The notes: generated from the letters alone by a model not told the origin. DNA of 64,000 nt from Candidatus Poribacteria bacterium (GCA_965208675.1 OZ242351.1:2732633-2796632); one strand, 5' to 3'; counted from the stretch's first letter, positions 13,579 to 46,812 are shown. Made by a program: numbers and translations.

Positions 13579-14931
13579 GTGAATGAGTCAGGAACCCCCA
13601 CCAATCTGTTCGACTCTCAGCCGACGTCCGGCAAAAGCGCGGGACCTCTGGCGCACCGGGTTCGCCCCAATTCACTCGACGGATTCGTCGGACAAGAGCA
13701 TCTGCTGGACAAGGGACAGCCTCTTCGTCGTGCAATCGAAGGCGACGTGTTGATGTCCTGCATCTTTTGGGGTCCGCCGGGGTGCGGCAAGACTACGCTG
13801 GCGCACATTATCGCCCAGTATTCAAAAGCGCACTTCGAGCCTATCAACGCGAGCACAACAGGCGTTCCGGAATTGCGTAAACGAATCGCCGCTGCTCAAG
13901 AACGCTTAAAAATCCAAAATCAACCTACCATCCTGTTCTTGGACGAAATCCACCGCTTTAACAAAGCGCAGCAGGATTTTCTGCTGTCCTTCGTGGAAAA
14001 CGGCACAATTGTGCTGATTGGTGCGACTACCGAAAACCCTTCCTTTGAGGTGAATACCCCGCTCCTCTCTCGCATGCAGGTTTACCCGTTCCACCCGCTA
14101 GAAACACGCCACATCCAGCAGATAGTGGATACGGCAATCTGCGATATTGAACGGGGACTTGGCAAGTATCGAGTCACACTTTCGGATGCGGCTATGGAAG
14201 CGCTCGTTCGGATTGCGGACGGCGATGTGCGGCTAGCACTTAATGCGTTGGAACTCGCGGTGCAAACGTGCAAGCCCAATTCGCAGCAAATCCGTCACTT
14301 GGATGCGGAGAGCGTCCGCCGCGCCGCACAGAAACGGATGCTGCGCCACGATAAAGCTGGCGATGAACATTACAACCTAATTTCGGCCTTTATCAAGAGT
14401 ATGCGTGCGTCCGATGCAGACGCTGCCATCTATTGGCTGGCGAGGCTCCTTGAAGCCGGAGAGGACGCGCGTTTCATTGCACGGAGAATGGTAATCTTGG
14501 CGTCTGAGGATGTCGGAAACGCCGACCCACAAGCGTTGTTGATTGCGGACGCGGCGGCACGCGCCGTGGAATTTGTCGGGCTTCCGGAGGCGCAACTCAA
14601 TTTGGCTCAGGCTGCCACCTACCTCGCGTGCGCACCGAAAAGTAATGCCTCATATCTGGCTTTACTAGCGGCTCAGAAAGATGTACGCCAAAAATCCGCC
14701 TACCCGGTACCGCTCCACCTGCGGAACGCACCCACGCAACTGATGCGAGAACTCGGGTACGGAAAGGGATACCAGTACGCTCACGATTTCGAAGAACACA
14801 TCGCCGACATGGAATGCCTCCCCGAACCTCTACACGGGCAACGCTACTATAAACCGACGGATATCGGATATGAAGCGGTCATCCGCGAATATCTGGAAAA
14901 AGTTAAAAACAAAATAGGGCGAACTGATTGA
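13579..14931 (+). CDS. rarA: Replication-associated recombination protein A (AAA+ ATPase RarA/MgsA)
   Basis: 450 aa. [11 protein letters not shown] Walker [17 protein letters not shown] Walker B/sensor, C-terminal MgsA helical domain. TGA stop. Confidence 0.9.
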
Positions 14932-14961
14932 GTCTAGCGGAGCGAAGGGCGAGCAAATTTG

Positions 14962-15042
14962 ATCTCACAATAGCGTACTCTCTATACGATAAATTCGCCG
15001 CTCTCCATCCTCTCTTCGCATCTCAAGAACGCACCCAATTTT
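14962..15042 (-). pseudogene. Remnant of the C-terminal KMRK..WRIY module of the ECF-fusion family
   Basis: Minus-strand translation ...LEMRREDGERRIYRIESTLL* resembles family C-termini (VKMRKEDGAWRIYE). Nucleotide similarity to 22640-22690. No upstream ORF. Confidence 0.45.
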
Positions 15043-22289: not shown

Positions 22290-22339
22290 ACTTTGGAAAA
22301 TCCGCTTTACCCGGTGCGGCCCCATCTTCGAAACGCACT

Positions 22340-22590
22340 GGCGCAACAGATACGGGCACTCGGTTTCGGGAAATGGTGCCAGTACATTCACGATTTTGAA
22401 GAACACATCGCCTCCATGGAATATCTTCCCGACGCTCTTCACAGATAACGCTCCTAAGAGCCGGTCGACATCGTACATGAAGCGGTCATCCGTGAATATC
22501 TGGAAAAAGTGACAAAACAAAAAAGGGCGAATCAATTGAACCATGTTCGTCTGATGAAGTCTAGCGGAGCGAAGTCAGAATTAGTCTAAT
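22340..22590 (+). pseudogene. Degenerate duplicate of the rarA 3' end (last ~55 codons plus 3' flank)
   Basis: About 75-80% nucleotide identity to 14760-14950. Translates to ...[22 protein letters not shown] against rarA ...[23 protein letters not shown]. The shared downstream motif agtctagcggagcgaag occurs at both sites. Confidence 0.6.
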
Positions 22591-22593
22591 GCA

Positions 22594-24078
22594 TCAGTAT
22601 ATTACCCTTTCCTCCCTAAATAATTCGCCCATCATTATATTACCCTTCCCATCATAAATTCGCCACTCCCCATCCACTTTTCGCATTTTAAGAACGAATC
22701 CAGTGTTCCTGGGGCTATCCGACGTTGGCGCTTCTAATCGGAAATGAAATTCATCGCCGACATATTCACTACTCACAATCTCTATCTGACTATAACCCTC
22801 CCGCATCTTCGACTGTCCTTCCGGAGTTTGAATTGCATCCAGTCCCTTCAGTATAGACTGAATCACAGATTCTCTCGTCTTTTCTACTAACGCTTCTGGC
22901 ACCCCTTCTGGAAAATTATCTTCAATTGCATTTAAGGTTTCATTTACAAATTCTTCTGGAAACTCCCCTCCGAGGAAACGTAAACTAGTTTCAATATGAT
23001 CTCTGTAAGCTCCTGTCACAAAGGGGAGAGTTTCCTCTAAATCCACATTCTTAAGTGCTTCCACATAAGCGTTCATCACCTCTTCGGCGGATAAGATTGT
23101 GCCTTCTGATGCAACGGATGAATCGGTTTCGCCTGATTCGGAATCCTGATTAGATGCCCCGTCCGTTGCTAGTTGCGACGCCTGCGTTTCCGATTGTTCG
23201 TCGGCACCTTCTAGATGATCGAAGAAGTCCTCAATTTGCAGCATCTCTTCTGCGGAGATTTGCGGCTTATTTTCGGGTAAAGGTGCGCTGACCGCGCCTT
23301 TACGAGCGGTGTCCGTTTGAGCGACCGAGGTTTCAGACTCAGTTGGCGTCGAAGCTACAATCTCAACCGATGGAGACGAATCTTCTTTCGACGATATGAA
23401 CTGGCGCGTTCCGATGAAGGCGAGTACAATGATGGCTACCGCCCCGGCGGTGATTTTGGGTACTGTTCCAACTTTCATGACCGTTAATCCTCCTGAGTAG
23501 ATTTGTTTGAGTGTGGGCATCGGAGAAACAAACACACCAGTAAGCAGATGACCCAATCGTTTGGCGAGTTTCTGCTTGGCGCGCGAGAGCCGAAACGAAA
23601 TCGCCTTGTATGACAACCCATGCGTCCGAATCAGTTCGTCGTAGCCTGCGCCTTCAAGATAGTACGAGCGAGCGATTTCCCTATCTTTTTGCGGCAACGT
23701 TTCAATCGCGCGGCGAATCAGTTCCCTCTGTTCGCGGCGTATCAACTGTTCGTCGGGTGCGTCCGGGGTTAGGAGTGTGTGTGCGCTCGCTTCATCAATG
23801 GAAACAGTATTGACACGCTGTTTTCGCAACCAATCTCGTGCACTGTTTCGGGCAATCTCTGCCAGCCAGTATTTGAATTTTTCCCGATCCTCATACTGCA
23901 CCAAGCCACGGTAGGCGTTGAGAAAGGTGTCTTGCACAATCTCTTCGGCATCGTTCGGATTGTTTACAAATCCGATTACAACCGCATAAACAAAGGCGTA
24001 ATGCACCCGCATTAACTCCGTGAATGCACCTTCGTCCCCCGCTTGAACGCGGTAAATCAGATCTTTAGTGTTAGCCAC
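22594..24078 (-). CDS. ECF sigma factor fused to a TM segment and a C-terminal extracytoplasmic KMRK..WRIY module (subfamily A)
   Basis: GTG start with GGAGG RBS. Sigma region 2 (AEEIVQDTFLNAYRGL), region 4 HTH (LPQKDREIARSYYLEGAGYDELIRTHGLSYKAISFRLSRAKQKL), TM helix (KITAGAVAIIVLAFIGT), acidic S/P/E linker, PQISAEEMLQIEDFF motif, then EYVGDEFHFRL...KMRKVDGEWRIY. Has a 19-aa extension past the family C-terminus. Confidence 0.8.
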   Translation of the reverse strand: MANTKDLIYRVQAGDEGAFTELMRVHYAFVYAVVIGFVNNPNDAEEIVQDTFLNAYRGLVQYEDREKFKYWLAEIARNSARDWLRKQRVNTVSIDEASAHTLLTPDAPDEQLIRREQRELIRRAIETLPQKDREIARSYYLEGAGYDELIRTHGLSYKAISFRLSRAKQKLAKRLGHLLTGVFVSPMPTLKQIYSGGLTVMKVGTVPKITAGAVAIIVLAFIGTRQFISSKEDSSPSVEIVASTPTESETSVAQTDTARKGAVSAPLPENKPQISAEEMLQIEDFFDHLEGADEQSETQASQLATDGASNQDSESGETDSSVASEGTILSAEEVMNAYVEALKNVDLEETLPFVTGAYRDHIETSLRFLGGEFPEEFVNETLNAIEDNFPEGVPEALVEKTRESVIQSILKGLDAIQTPEGQSKMREGYSQIEIVSSEYVGDEFHFRLEAPTSDSPRNTGFVLKMRKVDGEWRIYDGKGNIMMGELFREERVIY

Positions 24079-24160
24079 TGTTCTTCATTCCTCCTTATAC
24101 CCCTTAATCAAACATAACGACGTTCTGCGATTTTTTCTAGCACTTTTTTTGAAGATGTAA

Positions 24161-24204
24161 CTGTCTGAATCAGGATTTACCGGATTAAAGGATTCCCAGG
24201 ATAT
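24161..24204 (-). promoter_or_regulatory. Conserved promoter core (phased AATCC x3 ... GATTCAGACAGTT) upstream of the 22594-24078 paralog
   Basis: Minus strand TATCCTGGGAATCCTTTAATCCGGTAAATCCTGATTCAGACAG. Followed by the conserved leader AAAAAGTGCTAGAAAAAATCGCAGAACG (24121-24150). Confidence 0.5.
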
Positions 24205-24219
24205 CAGATTAGTCGCGGG

Positions 24220-24257
24220 TTGAAAATAAAAAAGGCGAATGGGTTGTACCATTCGCC
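24220..24257 (-). terminator. Intrinsic terminator (9-bp stem GGCGAATGG/CCATTCGCC + T-tract) after the 24296-25765 gene
   Basis: Minus strand reads GGCGAATGGtacaacCCATTCGCC followed by TTTTTTATTTTC. Confidence 0.6.
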
Positions 24258-24295
24258 ACGTGAAGTCTTTGGGAATAGAGTTGGGAGTTTGTTGA

Positions 24296-25765: not shown

Positions 25766-25839
25766 AGTTTTTCGTTCCTCCGTTGCATTATATTAAGACA
25801 CTGTTCTGCGATTTTTTCTAGCACTTTTTTGTGATGTAA

Positions 25840-25883
25840 CTGTCTGACTCAGGATTTACCGGATTAAAGGATTCTCAGGATAT
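25840..25883 (-). promoter_or_regulatory. Conserved promoter core upstream of the 24296-25765 paralog
   Basis: TATCCTGAGAATCCTTTAATCCGGTAAATCCTGAGTCAGACAG plus the conserved leader. Confidence 0.5.
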
Positions 25884-25899
25884 CAGATTTTTCGCGGGC

Positions 25900-25937
25900 A
25901 GAAAATAAAAAAAGGCGAATGGGTTGAACCATTCGCC
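25900..25937 (-). terminator. Intrinsic terminator (same hairpin family) after the 25987-28728 gene
   Basis: GGCGAATGGttcaacCCATTCGCC + TTTTTTTATTTTC on the minus strand. Confidence 0.6.
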
Positions 25938-25986
25938 TTGTGAAATCTTGGGGAATACGGTTGTGGGTTTGTTAAGAGTTCCGCTT

Positions 25987-28728
25987 TTAATACAAATAAT
26001 TAACTTCGTAAATTTGCCATGCACCGTTCTCTTTTCGCATCTTAACAGACGTACCCGGCATCTCTAGGTGCTCGGGCATCTCCGGCAGCTCTATCCCCTG
26101 TAATTCGGGCATCTCCGATATGTCCGGTATCTCTATTTTCGGCATGGCTATTTTCAATTGGAAGTGGAATTCATCGTCGACATATTTACTGGTCACAATC
26201 TCAACCTGACTGAACATTGATCGCACCATCGGATTCTGCATCGTATCGTTTAACATCTGAATCATACCGTCCGCCATTTCTTCTGATAACCCAATGTCAT
26301 TATAATATATATCAACAAGCTCATCCGGAAGCTCACCGTTAAACATGCCTATAAGACCCGTTACCACTGGTCGGGCAGTGCCTGTCACATACGGCAGCAT
26401 CGTCTCAAGTTCAAGCTTTCTATACGCCTCTATATAGGCATTCATCAACTCTTCGGCGGATGCATTCGCGTCGGTTGTGCTGGACTCGGTTTCAGATTCA
26501 GACGGTAGTTGGGAGGTGTCCACTTCCGGTTCTTCGATTTGACCGAGGGAGTCCTTGCCAACGATGACGGTGGCGCGCTTGTTTCGAGGGAATACACTCG
26601 CCGCCAGGTGCTGCATGTCTGCATCGGTAACGCGCTGGATGGCATCACGCAATTCGTTGCCATCCAGTTTCAGTTGATACCGACGACCGGTGCTGAAAGC
26701 TAAACCGTAAAGGTTTTGCGCCCACATGGCATCCGGCACCTCAACTGTGCCCAACATTGCCATTGAGTTAAGCGTTCGCTGTTTGTCCTCCGGTGTAAGT
26801 TTTGTCGCCAACGCCGTGTTTAGGCGTTCGTCGAGTTGAATCAGTGCAATATGGTCGTCTGTGTCAGATTGTAGGTCGGTTTGGAGCACAAGTGTGGTAT
26901 CATCCTCCAGCGGTGTGAAGTACACACGCGGTGTTTTACCCGGCTGAAAGACGAACTGTGCGCTTGCCCACAAACGCGAGACAACTATCAGGAACGGCGC
27001 GTACTCCTTACTCCCGGGTCGGGGTGCAGCATATCCAATCGCTGCGACGCCGGTCGTATCGTCGTTCACAGGTTCTGCAGTAAGCAACCGCAGCCCGCCG
27101 GTCAATGCTATAGACTTGCGCGGTTTAATAGGGGGCGACACGCTGGGCGAAATGTGACCGAAGTTTTGGTGAATCAACTGCCGCGCTTCGGCAACGTCAA
27201 ACCCGCCTGCGATGGCAAGAATGGCGTTGTTCGGTTTGTAGTAATTCTGCCAAAATTGCTGGAGCTCGTCGAGCGTCATAGTCTCGATGTGCTCGGGCGC
27301 GACGCCGACGCGTCCGCCTTCGAGAATCGTGTGCAAGTGAGCTCGAACACTGTTTAAACCGACCAGCGACGGGACGCCACTATACATGTTCCTCAACTCC
27401 GCCATCACGCGAGGCACCTCACGATTCAGATCGGCTTGGGTAATGCGTAGGTCATTCATGCGGGTAGCCGCGTCCTTCAATTCGGACGCGAATTGTTTTG
27501 CTTCGACGACCCCGGCAAAAACGGTGTAGTCAAATCCCGTGTGCGAGTTCCAGCCTGCAACATAGCGTGCCTGAAGCTGTATGGCGCCGCGCGCTGGGGA
27601 GTCGCCGGCTGCAGCGGTATAATACAGGTGTTCAAGCAGGTGTGCTCTGCCGGACTTTCCGATCGGGTCGTGGTCTCCGCCCAAATTGAACAGCACTACA
27701 ACCGCCACTTGGCTTGACGTGGGAACAGGGCGTAGAATGACTGTCAGCCCATTTTCCAGTTTGTACGGCGCCCGTATCTCGGTCTTTGAAATTTTAACCT
27801 CGGCGACGGAGTTGATCGGACTCGGTTGCTCGGGCGAATTACCGACAATCCCCGTGCCGTGTTCACCAAGAACCGTTGGCGGTTTGGCCCCCTCGGCCAC
27901 GAGTTCCACCGGAATCTCTGCAAACATTGTCATCTGGATTTCGCTGGGAAGCGGTGAACTGGCCAGATCGCCGGGCGTAGCAACTGGTCGGAGAAATTGA
28001 TTGAAAAGCATAAAGGTAAGTACTATCCCGACGGTCGCTGAACCGATGAATGGAAGCAACGGCTTCGTTGAAATCGGTTGCACTTTGGTTGACTTAATGG
28101 CTTCGACGATTCGGAACGTAAAGCCTGACTGTAATTTTTTCTCTGCAAATGTGGTGTCTATCATCGAAATCAACTCCTCCTTCAGTTTGGTTCTGGCTCG
28201 CATCAACCGTTGGTTCACGGTGTTGACAGAAGTCCCCAAAAACCGCGCAATCTCCTTGCTACTCAGACCGCCAAGATAGTAGAGCGTCAACGTCTGTCGA
28301 TAGATTTCCGGCAATTGATCAATCGCCTCACGGATGGATTCGGCTGCGGCTTCGCTTCGATAGGCATCAATTGACGGTGTGTCCAAGAGCGCCGTGTCTT
28401 GGTCCTCGATGTAGTCTCCATCTGGACGGCGTAATCGGGATGTGAGAAAATTTGTGCACGAATTAACCGTAATTGAGAACAGCCACGCTAAGAAGTTATC
28501 CCGTCGCTTGAGGGTAGGAAGTTTCTGATAGGCTTTAATAAAGACTTCTTGGGTGATGTCCTCAGCATCGTGGAAGTTTCTAAGCTTTGTGTAAGCTAGG
28601 GCATAGACGCTCGACTTGTATTTATCAACGAGCAAGCCAAACGCCGCCGATTCTCCATTAAGGCATTTTCCGATGATGTATCCATCTTCTGTGTACACGG
28701 TTCTATTCCTCTCACCAAATGGCTTCAT
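25987..28728 (-). CDS. ECF sigma-TM fusion with periplasmic M16 (pitrilysin-like, HxxEH) peptidase domain and C-terminal KMRK..WRIY module (subfamily B)
   Basis: 913 aa. ECF regions 2 and 4 (DAEDITQEVFIKAYQKL; LSSKEIARFLGTSVNTVNQRLMRARTKL), TM (GSATVGIVLTFMLF), GKSGRAHLLEHLYYT inverted zinc motif, C-terminus ...SKYVDDEFHFQLK...VKMRKENGAWQIYEVNYLY. Confidence 0.8.
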   Translation of the reverse strand: MKPFGERNRTVYTEDGYIIGKCLNGESAAFGLLVDKYKSSVYALAYTKLRNFHDAEDITQEVFIKAYQKLPTLKRRDNFLAWLFSITVNSCTNFLTSRLRRPDGDYIEDQDTALLDTPSIDAYRSEAAAESIREAIDQLPEIYRQTLTLYYLGGLSSKEIARFLGTSVNTVNQRLMRARTKLKEELISMIDTTFAEKKLQSGFTFRIVEAIKSTKVQPISTKPLLPFIGSATVGIVLTFMLFNQFLRPVATPGDLASSPLPSEIQMTMFAEIPVELVAEGAKPPTVLGEHGTGIVGNSPEQPSPINSVAEVKISKTEIRAPYKLENGLTVILRPVPTSSQVAVVVLFNLGGDHDPIGKSGRAHLLEHLYYTAAAGDSPARGAIQLQARYVAGWNSHTGFDYTVFAGVVEAKQFASELKDAATRMNDLRITQADLNREVPRVMAELRNMYSGVPSLVGLNSVRAHLHTILEGGRVGVAPEHIETMTLDELQQFWQNYYKPNNAILAIAGGFDVAEARQLIHQNFGHISPSVSPPIKPRKSIALTGGLRLLTAEPVNDDTTGVAAIGYAAPRPGSKEYAPFLIVVSRLWASAQFVFQPGKTPRVYFTPLEDDTTLVLQTDLQSDTDDHIALIQLDERLNTALATKLTPEDKQRTLNSMAMLGTVEVPDAMWAQNLYGLAFSTGRRYQLKLDGNELRDAIQRVTDADMQHLAASVFPRNKRATVIVGKDSLGQIEEPEVDTSQLPSESETESSTTDANASAEELMNAYIEAYRKLELETMLPYVTGTARPVVTGLIGMFNGELPDELVDIYYNDIGLSEEMADGMIQMLNDTMQNPMVRSMFSQVEIVTSKYVDDEFHFQLKIAMPKIEIPDISEMPELQGIELPEMPEHLEMPGTSVKMRKENGAWQIYEVNYLY

Positions 28729-28822
28729 TTAGTATGACAATGCAAAAGACCGAAATATTACACGGGCAGACAATTTTTCGGTTGAAAGAGAGGATAAGTG
28801 ACAGGGTGTATCTGTTACCGAA

Positions 28823-28866
28823 CTGTCTGACTCAGGATTTACCGGATTAAAGGATTCTCAGGATAA
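28823..28866 (-). promoter_or_regulatory. Conserved promoter core upstream of the 25987-28728 (M16-containing) paralog
   Basis: TTATCCTGAGAATCCTTTAATCCGGTAAATCCTGAGTCAGACAG. The leader differs from the subfamily-A leader. Confidence 0.5.
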
Positions 28867-28882
28867 CAAATTTTTCGCGGGT

Positions 28883-28919
28883 TGAAAATAAAAAAGGCGA
28901 ATGGGTTGAACCATCCGCC
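28883..28919 (-). terminator. Intrinsic terminator (same hairpin family, 1 mismatch) after the 28966-30354 gene
   Basis: GGCGGATGGttcaacCCATTCGCC + TTTTTTATTTTC on the minus strand. Confidence 0.55.
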
Positions 28920-28965
28920 TTGCGAAGTCTTGTGGGATTGAGTTGCCGGTTGCTTTAACGTCTGA

Positions 28966-30354
28966 CTATTCATAAATTCGCCATGCCCCGTCCTCCTTTC
29001 GCATCTTAACAACGTTTTCTACGCTCTCCGGCAACTCTGGCATCTCGTCCAGTAGTTCCGCCCGTAGTTCTTCCGGCGTATCCCGCATCAGCGGTTCTAT
29101 CAGTGCTCCAAATTGTGGTAAAGTTGTTCTCACTCGAAAATGGAATTCATCGCCAACATATTCGCTGCTTACAACCTCGGACCCGCCAAGCACCGGGCCG
29201 AACGTCAACTCAATCATCTGCTTGAGCTCTGGATTTTCCTCCATAAAATCTTTCATGTCCGGCAAAACACTTTCCAGCTCTTCTTTAGCAGCCCCTGTCA
29301 ATAACGGGAGCATTGCCTAAAAGTCTAAATTCTTGGATGCCTCGATATAGGCGTTCATTACCTCTTCAGCGGATTGTTCCGTGTCTTCAACAACCGCATC
29401 GGTACTGATTGAGACATGCTGATCGAAGTCTTGCTGATGTGCGGCTTCTGCGTGTTGTGTTTTGTCCGATTGTGCGTCCGCTTCATCGAGTTGAGCGAAG
29501 AAGTTTTCAATTTGCTGCATCTCCTCTGCAGAGATTTGTGGTTTGTCTTCAGGCACAGGCGCGACGACTGCGCTTTTACGAGCGGCGTCCGTTTGAGCGG
29601 CGGAGGTTTCAGCCTCAGTTGGCGTTGAAGCAACAATCTCTACCGTTGGAGTCGAATCTTCTTTCGACGAAATGAACTGGCGTGTCCCGATGAAGGCGAG
29701 TGCGATGATGGCAACTGCCCCGGCGGTGATTTTGGGAACGGTTCCAACTTTCATGACCGTTAATCCTCCTGAGTAGATTTGTTTGAGTGTCAACGCGGGA
29801 AAGGCGAATACACCAGTGAGTAGATGGCTCAACCGCTTGGCGAGTTTCTGCTTGGCACGCGAAAGCCGAAACGAAATCGCCTTGTATGACAACCCATGCG
29901 TCCGAATCAGTTCGTCGTAGCTGGCGCCTTCAAGAAAGTAGGAGTGAGCGATGTCCCTATCTTTTTGCGGCAGCGATTCCATGGCACGTCGAATTAGTTC
30001 TCTCTGCTCGTCGCGAATCAAGCTTTCGTCAGCAGACTCTGACAACTGAACTGCCCGCTCATCCACTTCATCAATAGATACGGTGTCCAACCGCTGTTCG
30101 CGTAACCAGTTTAAGGCTCGATTTCGCGCAATTTTTGCCAGCCAACTCTTGAGTTTGGTCTGCTCCTCATACTGCGCTAAGGCGCAGTAGGCGTTGAGAA
30201 AGGTGTCTTGCACAATCTCTTCGGCGTCGTTGGGATTGTTCACGATTCCGATTACAACCGCATAAACGAAGGCATAATGCGCCCGCATCAATTCAGTGAA
30301 TGCACCTTCGTCTCCCGCTTGGGCGCGAGAAATGAGCGTATCGTCGTTCCTCAC
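28966..30354 (-). pseudogene. Subfamily-A ECF sigma-TM-module paralog interrupted by one in-frame TAG (29314-29316); may be expressed as two products
   Basis: ORFs 29317-30354 (sigma + TM + linker, ends ...KNLDF*) and 28966-29313 (AMLPLLTGAAKEE...VKMRKEDGAWRIYE) are in the same frame. Paralogs read DFEAM at this position, consistent with GAG to TAG. Confidence 0.6.
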
Positions 30355-30430
30355 CGTAATTCATTCCCTTCCATCTACGCTATACAGAACACAGCTTTTG
30401 AGATTTTTCTAGCACTTTTTGGGTATTTAA

Positions 30431-30474
30431 CTGTCTGAATCAGGATTTACCGGATTAAGGGATTCTCAGGATAA
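30431..30474 (-). promoter_or_regulatory. Conserved promoter core upstream of the 28966-30354 paralog
   Basis: TTATCCTGAGAATCCCTTAATCCGGTAAATCCTGATTCAGACAG plus the conserved leader. Confidence 0.5.
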
Positions 30475-30491
30475 CAAAATACACGCGGGTT

Positions 30492-30527
30492 GAAAATAAA
30501 AAAGGCGAATGGGTTGAACCATTCGCC
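30492..30527 (-). terminator. Intrinsic terminator (same hairpin family) after the WD40 gene
   Basis: GGCGAATGGttcaacCCATTCGCC + TTTTTTATTTTC on the minus strand. Confidence 0.6.
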
Positions 30528-30557
30528 TGGTGAAGTGTTGAGGAATTCGGTTGCGGG

Positions 30558-32441
30558 TCATCGAGAGACATCCCATAAAAGCACTGTTCCGTCGTAACTT
30601 CCACTCCCCAGCGTGCTCCCATCCGGGTTGAATGCCAGGGTACTAATGTACGACGTATGCCCCTTCAAGCTTCGTCGCTGCGTCTCCGTCTTGGCATCCC
30701 ACAGAAGGATGATTGCGTCGGCATCCCCACTCGCAAGCGTTCGTCCATTCGGGCTAAACTCTACCGCGGTAACATCTGCCGAGTGACCGTTTAGCGTTCT
30801 ACGGTGCGTCCCCGTGGCAGCATTCCAAAGCTGGACGGAATGGTCGCCGCTCCCACTGGCTATCTTGTTTCCGTCTGAGCTAAAGGCGACGCTCGTGATG
30901 TCCGCGGTATGACCCTTTAGTGTTCGGCGGTGCGCGCCCGTGGCGACATCCCAAAGTCGGATGGTTGCGTCGGTGCACCCGCTTGCCAACGTCGCGCCGT
31001 CTGGGCTGAACGCAAGCGTCGAGCGAGCCGGCCTGTAAACGCGAGGAACGGTGTCCGACGCCTCCCAGTGCAGGTTATGCAGTTGCGCACCCGTCTCGGC
31101 ATTCCACAGGCGGATAGTTGTTTCGCCGTTCCAACTTGCTACCGCTGAGCCATCCGGGCTGAACGCTATGCTGTGGTCTACGCCGTCATCGTTTCGTAAT
31201 GTCCGCAGATATGCACCTGTCTTTACATTCCAAAGGCAGACGGAATGATGCCCATTTCCACCTGCTAACGTTAGCCCATCCGGGCTAAATGCTATGCTAT
31301 GGGCCTCTGATAAATACCGGTCCAGTGACCGCTTGTGCTCGCCTGTCACAGCATCCCATAAACGAATGGGATTCAACCGGCTCGCACTTGCCAACGCCGC
31401 ACCGTTCGGGTTGAACGCTATGCTAATGACGGGTTTTATATGTCCATCCAGCGTCCCTAAGTGCGTATCCGTCACCGGATTCCACAGGCGAATTGTCCCG
31501 TCGTCACTCCCGCTTACCAACGTTGCACTATCCGGGCTGAAGACGACATGAGTGACCCAACCCGTATGTCCTTCTAGCTCCCGCAGCCGTGTTCCTGCCG
31601 CGACATTCCACAATCCGATGGTCGTGCCAGGCCCACCACTTGCCAAGATACTGCCATCCGGGCTGAACGCGACGCTCGAGACCATAGGTATGCGTTCTTC
31701 CAGTTGCCAAAGGTGTACTCCGGTCTTAGCGTTCCAAAGTCGGATGCTATCGCCCCAACCGCCGCTTGCCAGTACGCTGCCATCTGGGCTGAACGCGACC
31801 GCGGTGGCATACTCCGTGTGACCTTCCAGAGTTCGTACAGGTACGCCTGTCTCCACATCCCACAGACGAATAGTCTTGTCATAACTTGCGCCTGCCAACG
31901 TCGAGAAATCCGGGCTGAACGCGGCGGTACCAACGGAATATGTATCTCCCTGCGGAGTACGCAGTTCCAGTGACCGCGTATGTGTTTTAGTCTCGACATC
32001 CCACAGATGAACGGTCGTCTGCGACACACCTGCTAGTGTGCTGCCATCCGGGCTGAAAACCACGTTCAAGGTGCCCTCTGATTTTGCCTCCAGTGTATGT
32101 AGGTGTAAACCCGTCACGGCATCCCACAGACGAACGGTATTGTCCGAACTTCCACTCGCTAGCATGCTGCCATCCGGGCTGAACACTACGCTCGCCACAA
32201 TTCCCGAATGTCCGGTGAGCAGAGCTATCTCTTGATGGGTCGTTGTATCGTAGAGCCAGATACCGATTCCGCTGCCGACTGCAAGCCGAGCGCCATCGGG
32301 GGAATACTGTATTTGACCTATCGCCCCCTTTCCGATCCGCGCTACAACCCCTTCAGGCAAACCCCACTGCGAGGCATCTTGCGAAAAGGCGTTGCACAAG
32401 GTCAAGGAGAACAGTATATGCAAGGATAAAACTGTTTTCAT
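30558..32441 (-). CDS. Secreted WD40 beta-propeller repeat protein (~14 WD repeats)
   Basis: Signal peptide, then reiterated [HS]xxxVxSVAFSPDGxxLASGSxDxTIRLWD units throughout. Confidence 0.9.
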   Translation of the reverse strand: MKTVLSLHILFSLTLCNAFSQDASQWGLPEGVVARIGKGAIGQIQYSPDGARLAVGSGIGIWLYDTTTHQEIALLTGHSGIVASVVFSPDGSMLASGSSDNTVRLWDAVTGLHLHTLEAKSEGTLNVVFSPDGSTLAGVSQTTVHLWDVETKTHTRSLELRTPQGDTYSVGTAAFSPDFSTLAGASYDKTIRLWDVETGVPVRTLEGHTEYATAVAFSPDGSVLASGGWGDSIRLWNAKTGVHLWQLEERIPMVSSVAFSPDGSILASGGPGTTIGLWNVAAGTRLRELEGHTGWVTHVVFSPDSATLVSGSDDGTIRLWNPVTDTHLGTLDGHIKPVISIAFNPNGAALASASRLNPIRLWDAVTGEHKRSLDRYLSEAHSIAFSPDGLTLAGGNGHHSVCLWNVKTGAYLRTLRNDDGVDHSIAFSPDGSAVASWNGETTIRLWNAETGAQLHNLHWEASDTVPRVYRPARSTLAFSPDGATLASGCTDATIRLWDVATGAHRRTLKGHTADITSVAFSSDGNKIASGSGDHSVQLWNAATGTHRRTLNGHSADVTAVEFSPNGRTLASGDADAIILLWDAKTETQRRSLKGHTSYISTLAFNPDGSTLGSGSYDGTVLLWDVSR

Positions 32442-32681: not shown

Positions 32682-34895
32682 TTACTGATAATCAATGTCA
32701 TAAATTCGCCATTCATCAGCCTCTTTTCGCATCTTATAAGTCATATCCGGAATTTCCAGGTGGTCGGGCATCTCCGACAGTTCCATCCCCTCCGGCATTT
32801 CTATCCCTTGTAGTTCGGGCATTTCCGATACGTCCGGCATCTCTATTTTCGGTATCGGTATTCTCAATTTGAAATGAAATTCATTGCCGACAAATTCACT
32901 GCTTACAACCGTTAACTGACTGTATATTGAGCGCAAGCCTGCTTGCACCATGGGATTGTTCATAGAATCCTCCATCATCTGAACCGTGCCGTCCGGCATG
33001 GAATCTATAAGCTCTTCTGGAAACTCACCGCTAAACACGTCCATGGTACTTTTTACCTCTTCTAGGGCGGTGCCTGACAAATACGGGAGCATCGTATCAA
33101 GGTCAAGATTTTTATGTGCCTCTACAAAGGCGTTCATCACCTCTTCGGCGGATACGCCTGCGCTATCAACGCTTAATCGTGCATCCGATTCTTCAGAAGA
33201 GAGCAGAGAAGCGCCGCCAACGATGACGGTGTCGCGTTTCTCTGGCGAGAATACATTCGCTGCCAGGTGCTGCATATCTACATCGGTTACACGCTGGATG
33301 GCATCGCGCAGATCCCCGCCATTTAGTTTCAGTTGATACCGGCGGCCAATGCTGAACGCTAATCCGTACGGATTTTGCGCCCACATGGCATCCGGTACAT
33401 CAACTGTGCCCATCATTGCCATTGAGTTTATCGTTAGCTGTTTGTCCGCCGGCGTGAGTTTCGGCGTCAATGCCGTGTTTAGGCGTTGGTCGAGTTGATC
33501 GAGCGCTGACTCAATGTCCGCCTCAATTTGCACGTCGGTCTGGAGCACAAGCGTGGTGCCATCGTCCAATGGTGTAAAGTACACAGGCGGTGTTTTGCCC
33601 GGCTGAAATGCAGCCTGCGCGCCTGCCCACAAACGTGAGACAACTATCAGGAACGGCGCGTATTCCTTGCTCCCGGGTCGGGGTGCAGCATATCCAATCG
33701 CTGCGACGCCGGTCGTAACGTCGTTCACAGGTTCCGCGGTGATGAAGCGAATTGCCCCGGTCTTCGCTGCAGGCTTGGGCGGCTTTGCAGGCGGAGGCAT
33801 ACCGGACGGAATCAGGCTGAAGTTTTGGTCAATCAAATGCCGCGCTTCGGCAACGTCAAACCCGCCTGCGATGACAAGAACGGCGTTGTTCGGCTTGTAG
33901 TAATCCTGCCATAACTGCTGCAGTTCACCGAGAGTCATTGTCTCAATGTGCTCGGGCGCACCGCCGACCCGTCCGCTTTCGGGGATGGGGTGCACCTGAG
34001 CTCGCACACGGTTTATGCCGACCAGCGACGGCACGCCGCTGTACATGTTACTCAATTCTGTCATCACGCGAGGCACCTCGCGGATTAGATCAGCTAAGGT
34101 GATTTGCAAATCGTTCATGCGCGCAGCCGCATCCTTCAACTCCAACGCGAATTGCCCTGCTTCGACGACACCTGCAAAAACAGTGTAGTCGAACCCTGTT
34201 TGCGCGTTCCAGCCTGCAACATAGCGTTCTTGAAGCTTCATGGCGTCGCGCGCTGGGGTGTCACCGGCTGCAGCGGTGCAATACAGGTGTTCAAGCAGGT
34301 GTGCTCTGCCGGACTTTCCGATCGGGTCGTGGTCTCCGCCCAAATTGAACAGCACTACAACCGCCACTTGGCTTGACGTGGGAACAGGACGTAGAATGAC
34401 TGTCAGCCCATTGTCCAGTTTGTACGGGGTTGGTATCTCAGAATTCGAAATTGTAGCGGCGGCGTTCATCGAACTCGGTTGACCGGGCGAATTGCCGACA
34501 ACCCCCGTTCCGGGCTCACCGGCAACCGTCGGCGGTTTGGAGGCATCAGCAACGAGTTCAACCGGAATCTCTCCAATCATTGTCATCTGGATATCGCTGG
34601 GGTACGGTGAACTGGCCAGATCGCCGCGCGCAGCGGCTGGACGGAGCAATTGACTGAAAAACATAAAGGTAAGCACAATCCCGACTGCTGCTGAACCGAT
34701 GAACGCAGGCAACGGCTTTGTTGAAATTGGTTGCACTTTGGTTGACTTAATAGCTTCCACGATTCGGAACGTAAAGCCTGACTGTAATTTTCTCTCTGTA
34801 AATGTGGTGTCTATCATTGCAATTGACTCCTCCTTCAGTTTGGTTCTGGCTCGCATCAGCCAGTCGTTGACGGTATTGACGGAACGCTCAAACAC
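32682..34895 (-). CDS. Subfamily-B paralog lacking most of the sigma domain: region-4 remnant + TM + M16 peptidase domain + KMRK..WRIY module
   Basis: About 75% aa identity to 25987-28728 from SVNTVN..LMRARTKLKEE onward. HLLEH is intact. C-terminus ...YKMRKEADEWRIYDIDYQ. The ORF starts inside the sigma region-4 helix. Confidence 0.65.
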   Translation of the reverse strand: MFERSVNTVNDWLMRARTKLKEESIAMIDTTFTERKLQSGFTFRIVEAIKSTKVQPISTKPLPAFIGSAAVGIVLTFMFFSQLLRPAAARGDLASSPYPSDIQMTMIGEIPVELVADASKPPTVAGEPGTGVVGNSPGQPSSMNAAATISNSEIPTPYKLDNGLTVILRPVPTSSQVAVVVLFNLGGDHDPIGKSGRAHLLEHLYCTAAAGDTPARDAMKLQERYVAGWNAQTGFDYTVFAGVVEAGQFALELKDAAARMNDLQITLADLIREVPRVMTELSNMYSGVPSLVGINRVRAQVHPIPESGRVGGAPEHIETMTLGELQQLWQDYYKPNNAVLVIAGGFDVAEARHLIDQNFSLIPSGMPPPAKPPKPAAKTGAIRFITAEPVNDVTTGVAAIGYAAPRPGSKEYAPFLIVVSRLWAGAQAAFQPGKTPPVYFTPLDDGTTLVLQTDVQIEADIESALDQLDQRLNTALTPKLTPADKQLTINSMAMMGTVDVPDAMWAQNPYGLAFSIGRRYQLKLNGGDLRDAIQRVTDVDMQHLAANVFSPEKRDTVIVGGASLLSSEESDARLSVDSAGVSAEEVMNAFVEAHKNLDLDTMLPYLSGTALEEVKSTMDVFSGEFPEELIDSMPDGTVQMMEDSMNNPMVQAGLRSIYSQLTVVSSEFVGNEFHFKLRIPIPKIEMPDVSEMPELQGIEMPEGMELSEMPDHLEIPDMTYKMRKEADEWRIYDIDYQ

Positions 34896-35205
34896 TGCGC
34901 AATCTCTTTAGTAAATAGCCCCCTAGTATTTAACCCTTTGCTACGGGTAGAGAGATTCTGATACACTTAAAAAACATTACGTGCGCGGCATCCTCATCAT
35001 TAATTAAGTTACTCAGCTTTGCGTAAGCGAGAGCGTAGACGCTCGACTTGTATTTATCAAAGAGCAAGGCAAATGCCGCCGATTCTCTATTAAGGCATTT
35101 TCCGATGATGTATCCATCTTCCGTGTACACGCTGCTGCTCCTCTCACTGAACGACTTCATTTTGTAAGACAATGCAAAAGACTGAAAAATTACAAGGGTG
35201 GACAA
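34896..35205 (-). pseudogene. Disrupted N-terminal (sigma region 2) remnant of the 32682-34895 paralog
   Basis: ORF 34930-35205 translates MKSFSERSSSVYTEDGYIIGKCLNRESAAFALLFDKYKSSVYALAYAKL, which matches the N-terminus of the 25987-28728 paralog. About 300 bp covering sigma regions 2.3 to 4 are missing or garbled before the frame resumes at 34895. Confidence 0.6.
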
Positions 35206-35253
35206 TTTCTGGGCGGAAAGAGAGGATAATTATTGAGGTGAATCTGTTGCCAA

Positions 35254-35297
35254 ACTGTCTGAATCCGTATTTACTGGAATAAAGGATTCTTAGGATA
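35254..35297 (-). promoter_or_regulatory. Conserved promoter core (slightly diverged) upstream of the disrupted 32682-35205 paralog
   Basis: TTATCCTAAGAATCCTTTATTCCAGTAAATACGGATTCAGACAG. Confidence 0.45.
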
Positions 35298-35314
35298 ACA
35301 GATTTGTCGCGGGT

Positions 35315-35350
35315 TGGAAATAAAAAAGGCGAATGGGTTGAACCATTCGC
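35315..35350 (-). terminator. Intrinsic terminator (same hairpin family) after the 35427-36308 gene
   Basis: GGCGAATGGttcaacCCATTCGCC + TTTTTTATTTCC on the minus strand. Confidence 0.6.
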
Positions 35351-35426
35351 CTGGTGTATCGGGGCAAGGAAACTCCTCATACCAATGTCTACAGTACTCA
35401 TCCGACAGTTAATCGGTACTATGGAA

Positions 35427-36478: not shown

Positions 36479-36919
36479 CTAATTCGAGGCGGTCACTTTT
36501 GAGATTGCCATTCCTGATATCTCCGGCATCTCGGGCGGCGGTCCGCCCATTTTGAAGTGGAATTCATCCCCAACATATTTGCTACTCACAACTCCTAACC
36601 GACTAAAATACTCAAGTACAGTTTGTTCAACCATCTGACGCATCTCAGCCGGCATTTCCGGTACAATTTCCGGATCCATGAGCGGGAAGCCCATTACCGC
36701 AGCCTTTTCAAACTCCTCTTTGGCAGTCCCTGTCATTAGCGAACCCATCGCCTCAAAGTCCATATTCTTAAACGCCTTCACGAAAGTATTCATCACATCT
36801 TCAGCAGATTGAGACGTGCTCCCTGACGGCATTTCCACATCTTTTTTCTCCGATACACTCAATGAACAGCCGTTAACAAACAAAGGCAAACAGACAAGGC
36901 TCACAATCAAAAATCGCAT
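36479..36919 (-). CDS. Stand-alone lipoprotein carrying the family's periplasmic module (no sigma, no TM), ending at an in-frame TAG
   Basis: Start MRFLIVSLVCLPLFVNGC (lipobox) with GGAG RBS. Contains FKNMDFEAMGSLMTGTAKEE and VSSKYVGDEFHFKM. The TAG at 36479-36481 is followed in frame by IIKMRKENGVWRIYDSETLD* up to about 36413. Confidence 0.6.
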   Translation of the reverse strand: MRFLIVSLVCLPLFVNGCSLSVSEKKDVEMPSGSTSQSAEDVMNTFVKAFKNMDFEAMGSLMTGTAKEEFEKAAVMGFPLMDPEIVPEMPAEMRQMVEQTVLEYFSRLGVVSSKYVGDEFHFKMGGPPPEMPEISGMAISKVTASN

Positions 36920-38639: not shown

Positions 38640-38714
38640 TGTGCTTCGTTCCTCTCTTGTACCTTAACCAAAACGCCGTTCTGCGATTTTTTCTACTACT
38701 TTTTTGGGTATTTT

Positions 38715-38749
38715 CTGTCTGAATCAGGATTTACTGGAGTAAGGATTTA
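38715..38749 (-). promoter_or_regulatory. Partial promoter core upstream of the 37137-38639 paralog, split from its upstream half by a ~140-bp insertion
   Basis: TAAATCCTTACTCCAGTAAATCCTGATTCAGACAG. The matching upstream half (...ATCCTGAAAAG and the hairpin remnant) lies at 38896-38960. Confidence 0.4.
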
Positions 38750-39039
38750 CACAGCTGAACACCCAAAGGTTCGTAGTAGGACAATTTAATGCCCGTTTTT
38801 ACTTAAAAATATGTCAGGTCAAGGGTGTGAAGGACATACCGGACGCGCAATAAATTACGCTACTACAAGCTGAACTGCCTATGTCCTAGGAATACAGGCT
38901 TTTCAGGATAAAAAAATTTTCACGGGTTGAAAATGAAACAGGCGAATGGGTAAAAATAATTGCCTAGCGAGGGGCTGGGGTGAGAGACGTTGGTTGTTTA
39001 ACTTTTCATCCGATAGATGCGCCATTCCCCGTCTACTTT

Positions 39040-41540: not shown

Positions 41541-41590
41541 GGACTACCCGATTAAAGAATTTTTAGGATAGCAGATTCTCCGATGAGGTG
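41541..41590 (-). promoter_or_regulatory. Degenerate copy of the promoter core upstream of the dienelactone hydrolase gene
   Basis: TATCCTAAAAATTCTTTAATCGGGTAGTCCC matches the 5' half of the core. The GATTCAGACAG half is absent. Confidence 0.35.
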
Positions 41591-43317: not shown

Positions 43318-43430
43318 CTGGCACCTCCTTTAGGTACAATCCGTATGCTTCCCGTTGTGAAATCGGAACTTCGGCCATATTCAACTACAAAATCCAGATA
43401 AATTTCTTGCCACTTTTATCGGGTGATAAA

Positions 43431-43474
43431 CAGTCTGAATCAGGATTTACTGGATCAAAGGATTCTCAGAATAG
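43431..43474 (-). promoter_or_regulatory. Intact conserved promoter core upstream of the Omp85/POTRA gene
   Basis: TATTCTGAGAATCCTTTGATCCAGTAAATCCTGATTCAGACTG, about 115 bp upstream of the ATG at 43317. Confidence 0.5.
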
Positions 43475-43491
43475 CAGATTTTTAGCGGTAT

Positions 43492-43527
43492 GAAAAGAAA
43501 AAAGGCGAATGGATTGAACCATTCGCC
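43492..43527 (-). terminator. Intrinsic terminator (same hairpin family) after the orphan module fragment, upstream of the Omp85 gene
   Basis: GGCGAATGGttcaatCCATTCGCC + TTTTTTCTTTTC on the minus strand. Confidence 0.55.
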
Positions 43528-43544
43528 TTGTGTAGTTTTTGGAC

Positions 43545-43710
43545 TAGGAATTCAGGTTAGTGATGGTACACCTCATCTTCAATTTCATGAATGTGCCATG
43601 TTCCACCGACGCTGGCACACCAAACGTTCTCCAGCGGAAGTGCAATTCATCGCCGACATGCACACTGCTCAAAATCCCGACCCAATAAGGCTCTGTAGAT
43701 ATTTCACCTA
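43545..43710 (-). pseudogene. Orphan fragment of the family C-terminal module
   Basis: Minus-strand translation ...ILSSVHVGDELHFRWRTFGVPASVEHGTFMKLKMRCTITNLNS* resembles SSEYVGDEFHFRL...KMRK. There is no upstream ORF. Confidence 0.5.
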
Positions 43711-45130: not shown

Positions 45131-46564
45131 CTATTCATAAATCTGCCATGTACCGTTCTCTTTTCGCATCTTATGAAGAAAGTCGGGCATTTCCGGCATC
45201 TCAGGCATCTGAAATGTCTCGGGAATCTCTGAAATGTCCTGCCCAAACCTTCCTAGCATCTCTGACATTTCCGGCAACTGGCTCCTTAATCGAAAGTGGA
45301 ATTCCTCGCCGACAAACTCACTGCTCACAATCTCTGCTTGACTAAACATCTGTTTAAGGATTGGTTGCATCATTCCTTGTATCATCTGAAGTGTCTCATC
45401 TGCCTCGTCTTCTGGCAAACCACTATCATAAAAAATTTCCTCAATCTCTTGTGGTAACCCTCCTAAAGGCAAACTACTTTCAAACTCTTCTTTGGCTGCA
45501 CCTGTCAGAAATGAGAGCATCGCGCCAGCGTCAAAATTCCGGAACGCCTTCAGATAAGCGTTCATTACATCTTCAGCGGATTGAGTGGTGTCTTCTGGCG
45601 TCGCCCATGAGTCGGTGGCATCGCCCGCATCGGCGTTCTTATCTAAGGCTTCGTCCGTTACTTGTTGCGACGTATCCGTCGCCGAATGCGAGTCTGCCTC
45701 GTCAAGTTGAGCGAAGAAGTCCTCAATCTGCTGCATCTCTTCTGCGGAGATTCGCGGTTTATCTTCACGCGGGGGTGCGGTGACTGCATTACTTCGTATG
45801 GCATCCGTTTGGATGGCCGGTTGCGCGGACTCTGTTGAAGTCACAATCTCAACCGACGAGGACGTATCCTCTTCTGACGAAATGAACTGGCGCGTCCCGA
45901 TGTAGGCTAGTATGACGACGGCTACTACCCCCGCGGTGATTTTGGGTATTGTTCCAACTTTCATGACCGTTAATCCTCCTGAATAGATTTTTTTGAGTGT
46001 CGACGCGGGAATAGCGAACACCCCAGTGAGCAGATGACCCAACCGCTTGGAGAGTTTCTGTTTGGCACGCGAAAGCCGTACCGAAACCGCTTTGTACGAC
46101 AACCCATGCGTCCTCGTCAACTCGTCGTAGCTTGCGCCTTCAATATAGTACGACCGGGCAATCTCCCGCTCACCTGGCGAAAGCGTCTCTATCGCACGGC
46201 GAATGAGTTCGCTCTGTTCACGGTGTATCAACTCGTCGTCCGGTGCATCCGAGGGCGATAGTGTGTGCTCCCCCACCTCATTGATGGACACGGTATCAAT
46301 CCGCTGTTCTCGCTGCCAGTTGAGCGCACGATTTCGCGCAATTTTTGCCAGCCAGTTTTTAAACTTTTTCGCATCCTCGAGGTCTGGCAGGCCGCGATAA
46401 GCGTTGAGAAAAGAATCTTGCACGACCTCTTCGGCGTCTTGGGGATTTTTCACGATTCCGATAACAATCGCATAGACATAACCATAATGCACCCGCAATA
46501 GATCGACGAATGCACCTTCGTCCCCGGATTGTGCGCGAGCAATTGTGTCCTCGTTAATAATCAC
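45131..46564 (-). CDS. ECF sigma-TM-periplasmic module fusion protein (subfamily A paralog); lacks the conserved promoter core upstream
   Basis: 477 aa. GTG start. Sigma regions 2 and 4, TM (KITAGVVAVVILAYIGT), PRISAEEMQQIEDFF, C-terminus ...SEFVGEEFHFRL...LHKMRKENGTWQIYE. Confidence 0.8.
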   Translation of the reverse strand: MIINEDTIARAQSGDEGAFVDLLRVHYGYVYAIVIGIVKNPQDAEEVVQDSFLNAYRGLPDLEDAKKFKNWLAKIARNRALNWQREQRIDTVSINEVGEHTLSPSDAPDDELIHREQSELIRRAIETLSPGEREIARSYYIEGASYDELTRTHGLSYKAVSVRLSRAKQKLSKRLGHLLTGVFAIPASTLKKIYSGGLTVMKVGTIPKITAGVVAVVILAYIGTRQFISSEEDTSSSVEIVTSTESAQPAIQTDAIRSNAVTAPPREDKPRISAEEMQQIEDFFAQLDEADSHSATDTSQQVTDEALDKNADAGDATDSWATPEDTTQSAEDVMNAYLKAFRNFDAGAMLSFLTGAAKEEFESSLPLGGLPQEIEEIFYDSGLPEDEADETLQMIQGMMQPILKQMFSQAEIVSSEFVGEEFHFRLRSQLPEMSEMLGRFGQDISEIPETFQMPEMPEMPDFLHKMRKENGTWQIYE

Positions 46565-46812
46565 TGTGAGTTGTTCCTCTCTTTAACCTAATAAAGACAC
46601 GGTTTTACGACTTTTTCTACTTCTTTTTTGCTTTCGTTCTCCTGTTGTTGCTATTTCCTTTCAAAACTGGGGGACGAACCATGCTGCGATTAGTGATTGC
46701 GGAACCAACTGACGCCGTGCTAAAATTGAAATTTGATTCCCTAATTCTTTCGCCGCTAGATGCCACCATCGCGCATCATCCGACATAATACTCCGCTTGT
46801 CAGTTTGACACT

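Follow-up and report, generated by a model that had tools for sequence, protein, structure and literature searches.

The REPIN/RAYT system (Bertels & Rainey 2011, PMC3116915) consists of short extragenic repeats that occur as inverted doublets, solo copies and tandem clusters, and of a small gene that is flanked by its own repeats and far outnumbered by them, without target-site duplication; the gene encodes an HUH/Y1 (IS200-like) tyrosine transposase, the repeat is a repetitive extragenic palindrome (REP), and REPINs are lineage-specific. Miniature inverted-repeat transposable elements (MITEs) and the Correia elements of Neisseria are small, mostly non-coding and intergenic, carry terminal inverted repeats, and have derivatives lacking an open reading frame (ORF) that far outnumber the coding copies. 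Such elements can place promoters or terminators beside host genes. Putative mobile promoters are closely similar non-coding sequences found before unrelated genes, occasionally shared between phyla and without an Rfam match (Matus-Garcia, Nijveen & van Passel 2012; PMC3488235, PMC3575422), and the spacers of tandem gene arrays combine the terminator of the upstream gene with promoter elements for the next. Here, these systems are compared with an intergenic cassette that recurs in a 64,000-nt stretch of DNA from Candidatus Poribacteria bacterium (GCA_965208675.1 OZ242351.1:2732633-2796632; the whole stretch is referred to as the window), between tandem paralogs encoding fusions of an extracytoplasmic function (ECF) sigma domain. 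The cassette includes a 45-nt sequence, termed the arm, and the unexpected result was a cross-phylum repeat family, to which the arm belongs, together with its nuclease gene, GxxExxY.

The arm family resembles REPIN/RAYT in all the traits of arrangement named above, doublets and a repeat-flanked gene included, but the gene is a ~125-aa GxxExxY gene of the PD-(D/E)XK class and not a transposase gene, the arm is an array of phased pentamers and not a palindrome, and one arm subfamily is near-identical across six phyla. With MITEs and Correia elements it shares its size, intergenic position and predominance of ORF-less copies, and its doublets have terminal inverted repeats around a short non-coding interior, the window holding solo arms only; unlike those elements, it has no target-site duplication and no recognised transposase parent (the sole recurrent enclosed gene is GxxExxY), the distance between arms ranges from 2 to >400 nt, and the solo arms of the window all have one orientation. 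Like putative mobile promoters, it is shared between phyla and matches nothing in Rfam, but it is tied to a specific protein-coding element, and across phyla it does not favour a position upstream of genes. The order of terminator and promoter elements known from tandem arrays recurs in the cassette, except that the terminator stem is invariant across distant species and an element of apparently foreign origin lies between the candidate promoters.

The arm family and its link to GxxExxY genes

The arm is composed of four ATCC units (TATCC, GAATCC, TAATCC and AAATCC) followed by CCTGATTCAGACA. Its units start 9, 8 and 9 bp apart, less than a helical turn, where the initial annotation had described three AATCC units at a one-turn spacing of 9-10 bp. 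The pentamers and the terminal CCTGATTCAGACA are invariant, and the 3-4-nt spacers that follow the pentamers vary freely. Reference genomes, one per species, were searched with a pattern of 24 specified bases taken from the core, which gave 71 loci in six phyla: 29 in Dehalococcoidia/Chloroflexi, 25 in Poribacteria, 10 in Bacteroidota (including isolates of Pontibacter and Chitinophagaceae), 3 in Pseudomonadota (including Thioploca), 2 in Cyanobacteria (including the isolate Anabaena UHCC 0187) and 2 in Ignavibacteria. Positions left free in the pattern proved to be conserved as well, the spacers after the pentamers excepted. The arm is also present on two cyanobacterial plasmids, of Dolichospermum and Anabaena sp. 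90, and the pattern occurs on at least 120 metagenome contigs; it had no match in IMG/VR viral contigs or phage records. A search with nhmmer detected 485 arms, with 34 inverted doublets in the genome set and further doublets in metagenomes, alongside solo arms and tandem arrays. In doublets, the two arms are 2-70 nt apart and the outer ends read TGTCTGA...TCAGACA. A doublet can form a long hairpin, as REPIN doublets can, with a predicted fold of -58 kcal/mol, and a single arm is no more structured than shuffled sequence, with z = +0.5 and +0.4 for the two strands. Genes adjacent to arms are mutually unrelated and include those for enolase, superoxide dismutase, Rieske oxygenases, hsdS and TIR-TPR proteins, among others. 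A literature search by arm sequence returned unrelated primers only, and one for Poribacteria plus MITE returned no description of these repeats.

The arm family is linked to GxxExxY genes. At several metagenome loci, inverted pairs of arms enclose homologous interiors of 370-470 nt, each with an ORF of ~125 aa that matches TIGR04256 (GxxExxY; E = 1e-38 to 1e-40, 132-138 bits against a cut-off of 35) and PF13366 (PDDEXK_3; 127-131 bits against a cut-off of 22). Complete units of the family are ~0.5 kb long and consist of inverted arms or arm doublets around a GxxExxY (PD-(D/E)XK) gene; doublets without an ORF and solo arms are far more numerous. Within ~1.3 Mb of arm-selected loci, ~20 ORFs of the cognate GxxExxY subfamily adjoin arms, most with an arm no more than ~110 nt away on both sides, and they lie either inside one doublet or between two doublets, the latter architecture being found at L095, L099, L177, L182, L187 and L197. 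In the reverse test, which is unbiased by the arm since the genes were picked by protein similarity alone, all four nuclease loci had arms at the gene; these were on a Dehalococcoidia chromosome, in a 3.4-Mb genome, in the Poribacteria genome of L037, and on a contig with a near-identical copy of P0169. P0169 belongs to the subfamily and comes from the 4,892,038-bp contig of which the window is a part, and the 64 kb of the window itself contain no GxxExxY gene. Around more divergent GxxExxY genes, the inverted repeats differ in sequence and share the design of phased 8-10-nt units, namely CACAGAGGA in Bacteroides finegoldii, CACAGAGA in Bernardetia, CGGAAAAAG and ACGGATGAAC at metagenome loci L187 and L099, and a second arm type at Poribacteria locus L019.

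In the protein, the GxxExxY, D and ExK motifs are invariant. Its structural model has a predicted local distance difference test (pLDDT) score of 92, and the best fold matches are PD-(D/E)XK nucleases: Cas4, lambda-exonuclease-like enzymes, the R2 endonuclease domain, splicing endonucleases and Hjc. At least ~8,000 homologues were detected. The family (PF13366) appears in a survey of PD-(D/E)XK enzymes as one of unknown function with multiple transfers (PMC3424549), and the literature on GxxExxY, PF13366 and TIGR04256 yielded no link to repeats. Judged by its sequence, the arm of the window is a solo copy of the end-repeat of an element that is associated with the nuclease and similar to a MITE or REPIN, and the nuclease may be what recognises the arms. 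A more far-reaching and tentative reading is that GxxExxY mini-nucleases and their flanking phased 8-10-nt arrays form an undescribed nuclease-associated repeat system, similar to RAYT/REPIN but with a different enzyme, in which each nuclease subfamily would recognise its own repeat; the subfamily with AGGATT units would have passed nearly unchanged through at least six phyla, and solo arms in Poribacteria would have been co-opted as promoter-proximal elements of a fast-duplicating array of ECF-sigma fusion genes.

Several further features of arm loci were recorded. Arm doublets together with a truncated hsdS leader are repeated in tandem up to six times before type I restriction specificity genes (hsdS); tandem arrays are found at L024 (1238-2147), L029, L030 and L066 in Poribacteria and at L105 and L179 in metagenomes, and elsewhere as many as 12 arms follow one another head to tail in 900 nt. 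Many neighbours of arms in Poribacteria and on cyanobacterial plasmids are defence genes (TIR-TPR, hsdS/hsdM, Mrr-methylase, diversity-generating retroelement, VapC). On the Dolichospermum plasmid pAfl69 (L072, 4200-4270), a 24-nt insert, ATGGCTTGCGCCACGCTTCGCTA, breaks the arm within its terminal CCTGAT|TCAGACA; it is reminiscent of the very small dispersed repeats of Nostocales.

A number of known elements were considered for the arm and set aside. As an integron attC site it would need the core sites R'' (RYYYAAC) and R' (GTTRRRY) bounding an imperfect palindrome, which by inspection its ends TGTCTGAATC...GATTCAGACA do not have, and the single arms of the window cannot fold. By inspection too, the arm matches neither a -35/-10 pair within the pentamers, read in either direction, nor sigma-54 or sigma-H boxes, DnaA boxes, an IHF site, CsrA GGA sites on the opposite strand or the inverted repeats of Tn3, IS4, IS903 and IS1380, and any likeness was confined to short words. 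The spacer ATTTTCAACCCGCGAA was also compared with the 3' end of a GxxExxY ORF (...IFNDRE*), of which it might have been a remnant, and the match extends over 9 nt only.

Anatomy of the cassette in the sigma-fusion array

All genes between 22.6 and 46.6 kb of the window lie on the minus strand, as do the cassettes, and form a tandem array of ECF-sigma fusion paralogs. In each paralog, an ECF sigma domain with regions 2 and 4 is joined to a membrane segment and to a C-terminal domain that varies among paralogs, two of them being fusions to an M16 peptidase. Interspersed are genes for a WD40 protein, an Omp85-like protein, a dienelactone hydrolase and a PhyH oxygenase, as well as several decayed paralogs. 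Between paralogs, the cassette occurs in six nearly identical blocks, and of two further copies one is split and the other decayed. Among the spacers, a repeat finder returned a 143-nt family with six copies and a 92-nt family with seven copies, which match the positions given for the cassette in the initial annotation. Chance controls consisted of 100 dinucleotide-preserving shuffles per pattern, with up to 3 mismatches allowed: the 26-nt core had 5 matches (0.00 expected in shuffles), the hairpin pattern 6 (0.02 expected) and the leader pattern 3 (0 expected). Alignment of the copies showed a sharp-edged block that extends from ~35 nt before the hairpin, within the 3' untranslated region (UTR) of the upstream gene, through CAGACAGTT, with flanks that vary from copy to copy. 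Comparison with distant Poribacteria gave two promoter candidates, TTTTCA-N17-TGn-TATCCT (P1) and CTAGA-N17-GTCTT (P2).

Copy 1 shows the full layout. The 3' UTR of the upstream sigma-fusion gene (24258..24295; stop codon 24296-24298) contains, before the hairpin, a ...CTTCAYNA motif that is conserved among the copies and is present in distant Poribacteria too. It is followed by the intrinsic terminator at 24224..24257 (hairpin 24234-24257), identified by terminator scan and folding, in which the stem GGCGAATGG-TACAAC-CCATTCGCC is followed by TTTTTTATTT; by candidate P1 at 24198..24226, with a -35 TTTTCA (24221-24226), a 17-nt A-rich spacer, TGn and a -10 TATCCT (24198-24203); by the arm at 24159..24203 (TATCCTGGGAATCCTTTAATCCGGTAAATCCTGATTCAGACAGTT; nhmmer score 56), a putative solo end-repeat of the GxxExxY-associated family; by P2, the leader of the initial annotation, at 24114..24143 (GTGCTAGA-N17-GTTAT, with an A-run before it); and by the Shine-Dalgarno sequence AAGGAGGAA (24088-24096) and GTG start (24076-24078) of the gene 22594..24078, together spanning 24076..24096. 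That gene is the last of the array and has only a decayed hairpin downstream.

Copy 2 (25795..25986) has its hairpin at 25914-25937, P1 at 25877-25905, arm at 25838-25882 and P2 at 25795-25824. Copy 3 (28821..28965; hairpin 28896-28919, P1 28860-28888, arm 28821-28865) is followed by the distinct subfamily-B leader of the sigma-M16 peptidase fusion 25987..28728. Copy 4 (30386..30557) lies directly 3' of the WD40 stop codon, with hairpin 30504-30527, P1 30468-30496, arm 30429-30473 and P2 30386-30415, and copy 5 (35253..35382; hairpin 35328-35351, P1 35292-35320, arm 35253-35297) comes after a 293-aa gene and precedes a subfamily-B leader and a decayed sigma N-terminus. In copy 6 (38670..38980), an insert of roughly 140 nt, also present in the related genome L037, separates the third arm unit from the remainder of the arm; the copy retains a decayed hairpin, P1 (38905-38933), the distal half of the arm (38714-38749) and P2 (38670-38699). 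A decayed arm without a hairpin lies at 41541..41590, upstream of the dienelactone hydrolase gene. Copy 8 (43429..43558; hairpin 43504-43527, P1 43468-43496, arm 43429-43473) is located between a sigma-fusion C-terminal remnant (43635-43676) and the Omp85-like gene. Upstream of gene 45131..46564, which opens the array, there is a leader with P2 at 46594..46623 (GAAGTAGA-N17-GTCTT) and neither hairpin nor arm.

The terminator role of the hairpin, already proposed in the initial annotation, is well supported by its predicted structure. Cassette hairpins were the five best terminator-like sites in a scan of 20 kb; the hairpin folds at -17.1 kcal/mol (z = -5.6), with a stem of 9-11 pairs (6 of them G-C), a 6-nt loop and the T-run TTTTTTATTT, as in intrinsic terminators, and it is found on the coding strand 30-40 nt past the stop codons of the upstream genes. 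The stem GGCGAATGG/CCATTCGCC with its T-run also ends paralogs in Poribacteria whose proteins are only ~50% identical, and the same hairpin lies downstream of genes that are not paralogs (WD40, PA14). Its loop reads TTCAAY or, in the other orientation, RTTGAA, and no compensatory changes were found in the stem across the distant Poribacteria loci L074, L075 and L076.

A sigma-70-type promoter likely lies directly after the terminator T-run, at a conserved position. In seven copies of the window, P1 reads TTTTCA-N17-TATCCT with TGn upstream of the -10, in keeping with the 16-18 bp between sigma-70 hexamers and with a -10 that has A as its second and T as its sixth base, and a promoter-like site (score of at least 8) follows 21 of 25 sense hairpins at six loci, against 6.9 +/- 2.1 (maximum 12) in shuffles. 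The sigma arrays of L074, L075 and L076 are syntenic with that of the window. At L075 the counterpart of P1 is the near-consensus ATGACA-N17-TGTTAAAAT, right after the T-run, and at L074 it is TTTTCA-N17-TGCTAGAAT; L075 and L076 also have TTGnnn-N16/18-TAAGAT at the P1 position. The -10 differs among lineages (TAAAAT, TAGAAT, TAAGAT, TATCCT), and position and spacing are constant. Since P1 of the window clade is TTTTCA-N17-TGn-TATCCT, its -10 would be the first arm unit, and the rest of the AATCC array lies downstream of it. The universal arm is absent from the arrays of L074 and L075, which have in its place a related sequence ending in CCTGCGRTTTTGAYGCAC. At L076, the position orthologous to 41541..41590 has an intact hairpin, P1 and arm, and the hydrolase gene starts at an ATG 22 nt past the arm, with no P2 and nothing else upstream.

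P2 is a promoter-like element that belongs to the gene family itself and is probably of the ECF type and autoregulated. It is present as GTGCTAGA-N17-(C/T)GTCTT upstream of every subfamily-A gene at six loci (the window, L037, L045, L074, L075 and L076), 30-35 nt before the GTG, with its CTAGA and GTCTT boxes 17 nt apart (18 nt in a single L074 copy). Subfamily-A genes without an arm have it as well, including the first genes of arrays, which have no hairpin or arm. Its two boxes at fixed spacing and its GTC-type -10 (GTCTT or CGTCTT) make it fit autoregulated ECF promoters, which have boxes 16-17 nt apart and a CGT/GTC-type -10 and lie at a similar distance from the sigma start codon. An AAC motif is usual in ECF -35 boxes; unlike these, P2 has none, with GTGCTAGA in that place. 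An alternative reading of P2 is an extended -10, TGCTAGAAA.

We consider it reasonably probable that the cassette is a composite intergenic module with four separable parts. The conserved 3' UTR and strong intrinsic terminator would end the upstream gene; the sigma-70-type P1 would follow directly after the T-run; the 45-nt arm, which starts inside the P1 -10, would make up the first ~35 nt of the P1 transcript; and P2, in subfamily-A genes, would precede the ribosome-binding site and GTG. The module would then have been multiplied along with the gene unit through tandem duplication.

Side observations were made on the array and its surroundings. Decayed members lie at 28966-30354, 32682-35240, 36479-37039, 39040-39807 and 43635-43676; a stop codon divides one gene into 29317..30354 and 28966..29313, one M16 fusion has lost its sigma N-terminus, two ORFs retain the C-terminal domain only, and another is a short C-terminal remnant. 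This number of decayed members points to rapid birth and death of paralogs. The WD40 gene (30558-32441) contains 11-12 copies of a 126-nt (42-aa) repeat with 60-100% identity at the DNA level, and at L074 a WD40 domain is fused straight onto the sigma domain. The insert in copy 6 (~38750-38890) has the inverted repeats GGACAT/ATGTCC and GTAGTAG/CTACTAC and a direct GTTCAGCT repeat; its counterpart in L037 (6510-6693) is 83% identical, a core of 26-29 nt recurs at Poribacteria loci L008 and L010, and the insert may be another small repeat family. Next to the array, a ~320-bp junction is duplicated with 77% identity (14701-15024 and 22308-22689) around a 7.6-kb block that holds two LamG-like genes, a 654-aa gene and an FG-GAP/ASPIC gene. 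The junction comprises the 3' end of a rarA/mgsA-like AAA gene (13579..14931) and the 3' end of a sigma-fusion gene, and resembles the trace that an insertion or segmental duplication would leave.

Alternative readings of the arm and the leader

Identity was compared among 11 copies from four genomes, with means of 94% for the hairpin, 92% for the arm, 78% for the spacer and 54-63% for the flanks. Identity of the cassette is equal within and between genomes, which argues against simple within-genome homogenisation and in favour of either constraint or repair with the dispersed family as template; the ~92-94% identity of hairpin and arm could reflect either selection or repair from other family copies. 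These values bear on a doubtful alternative in which the arm has no host function here and is the remnant of a hitch-hiking selfish element, caught before amplification of the gene unit and kept near consensus by nuclease-driven repair or gene conversion. The family is distributed across phyla as selfish intergenic DNA would be, with no orientation bias and with tandem arrays and doublets, copies in the window are decayed (41.5 kb) or interrupted (38.8 kb), and distant Poribacteria do without this arm. However, the arm is far better conserved across the four genomes than the adjacent spacer or the leader (56%), with no within-genome excess, and its first unit provides the -10 at the conserved P1 position. 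An operator is unlikely: several copies of a DNA-binding protein, a repressor or GxxExxY itself, would sit on the phased ATCC units between the P1 -10 and P2 and gate transcription of the paralogs. Invariant pentamers and CCTGATTCAGACA separated by free spacers do suggest recognition unit by unit and not base pairing, a lone arm is unstructured, the repeat units co-vary with the nuclease subfamily, and arm identity is the same within and between genomes; but the 8-9-bp spacing keeps the units off one helix face, and outside Poribacteria the position of the arm relative to promoters is not fixed. Constant pentamers with variable spacers are also what would be expected of a protein-binding array, such as the repressor or regulator array offered in the initial annotation; an operator is compatible with the explanation preferred here and does not exclude it.

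The initial annotation had also made the AATCC array itself a shared promoter, with -35 and -10 in the pentamers, recognised by the fused ECF sigmas as an autoregulated regulon. The array is highly conserved and lies upstream of most sigma paralogs, the Omp85-like gene and the hydrolase gene, but identical sequence, 42 nt long, is found in five other phyla beside housekeeping genes in either orientation, and the array is very probably not an ECF-sigma site because the same sequence stands beside unrelated genes in six phyla. Moreover, the L074 and L075 arrays and the gene that opens the present array lack it and keep P2, and nearly all of its 42 positions are constrained, unlike two short ECF boxes. 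This reading is improbable; a shared promoter in principle probably exists, in the form of P1 after the T-run, and had been placed on the wrong element, while P2 would be the better candidate for an autoregulated ECF promoter. A structured RNA leader (riboswitch or attenuator) between hairpin and start codon, the other role suggested there, is highly improbable. The region is ~120 nt long, conserved and upstream of a ribosome-binding site, but neither the window nor 12 related loci had an Rfam 15 match at the gathering threshold, and what matches appeared were at chance level, with scores about half of that threshold; folding of the consensus gave -6.5 kcal/mol, its covariation term being positive, and the arm folds no better than shuffled sequence on both strands. 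A predicted pairing of the arm UCCUUU unit with the ribosome-binding site is invariant and hence uninformative. What stands of the leader claim is a conserved two-block element, P2, that fits an ECF-type promoter.

Several points weigh against the explanation preferred here, the composite module with an arm from a nuclease-associated repeat family. P1 of the window clade is weak, agreeing at 8 of 12 hexamer positions plus TG, and was not among the sites listed by the standard scan; promoter activity and transcription starts of both P1 and P2 are predictions from sequence motifs. Solo arms outside Poribacteria show no preference in orientation, 23 being co-oriented with and 32 opposed to genes, and the family therefore has no general promoter role; the 19 to 6 ratio in Poribacteria is inflated by paralogs. 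Flanks of doublets and complete units differ, giving no target-site duplication at the TG...CA ends, and no known transposase or other shared protein family was found near arms across phyla. Mobility of the family is argued from one feature, its sporadic cross-phylum distribution, and the proposed action of the nuclease on the repeats from adjacency and co-variation. A purely structural terminator stem is expected to drift, and its invariance here would not be accounted for by such a role.

Significance of the repeat family

For the sigma-fusion array, the model of a phased-pentamer ECF regulon gives way to a testable four-part anatomy, and the analysis directs attention to P2 as what is probably the real family-specific cis-element. 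For the widespread and uncharacterised GxxExxY/PF13366 family, a genomic context can now be assigned. The analysis has also brought to light a non-coding sequence of 42 nt with hardly any variation among Bacteroidota, Cyanobacteria, Chloroflexi and Poribacteria. Should the nuclease act on these repeats, small repeats would have a new means of spreading, and repeats dispersed in this way could give rise to terminator-promoter junctions, to sites of recombination or to regulatory sites in bacterial genomes.

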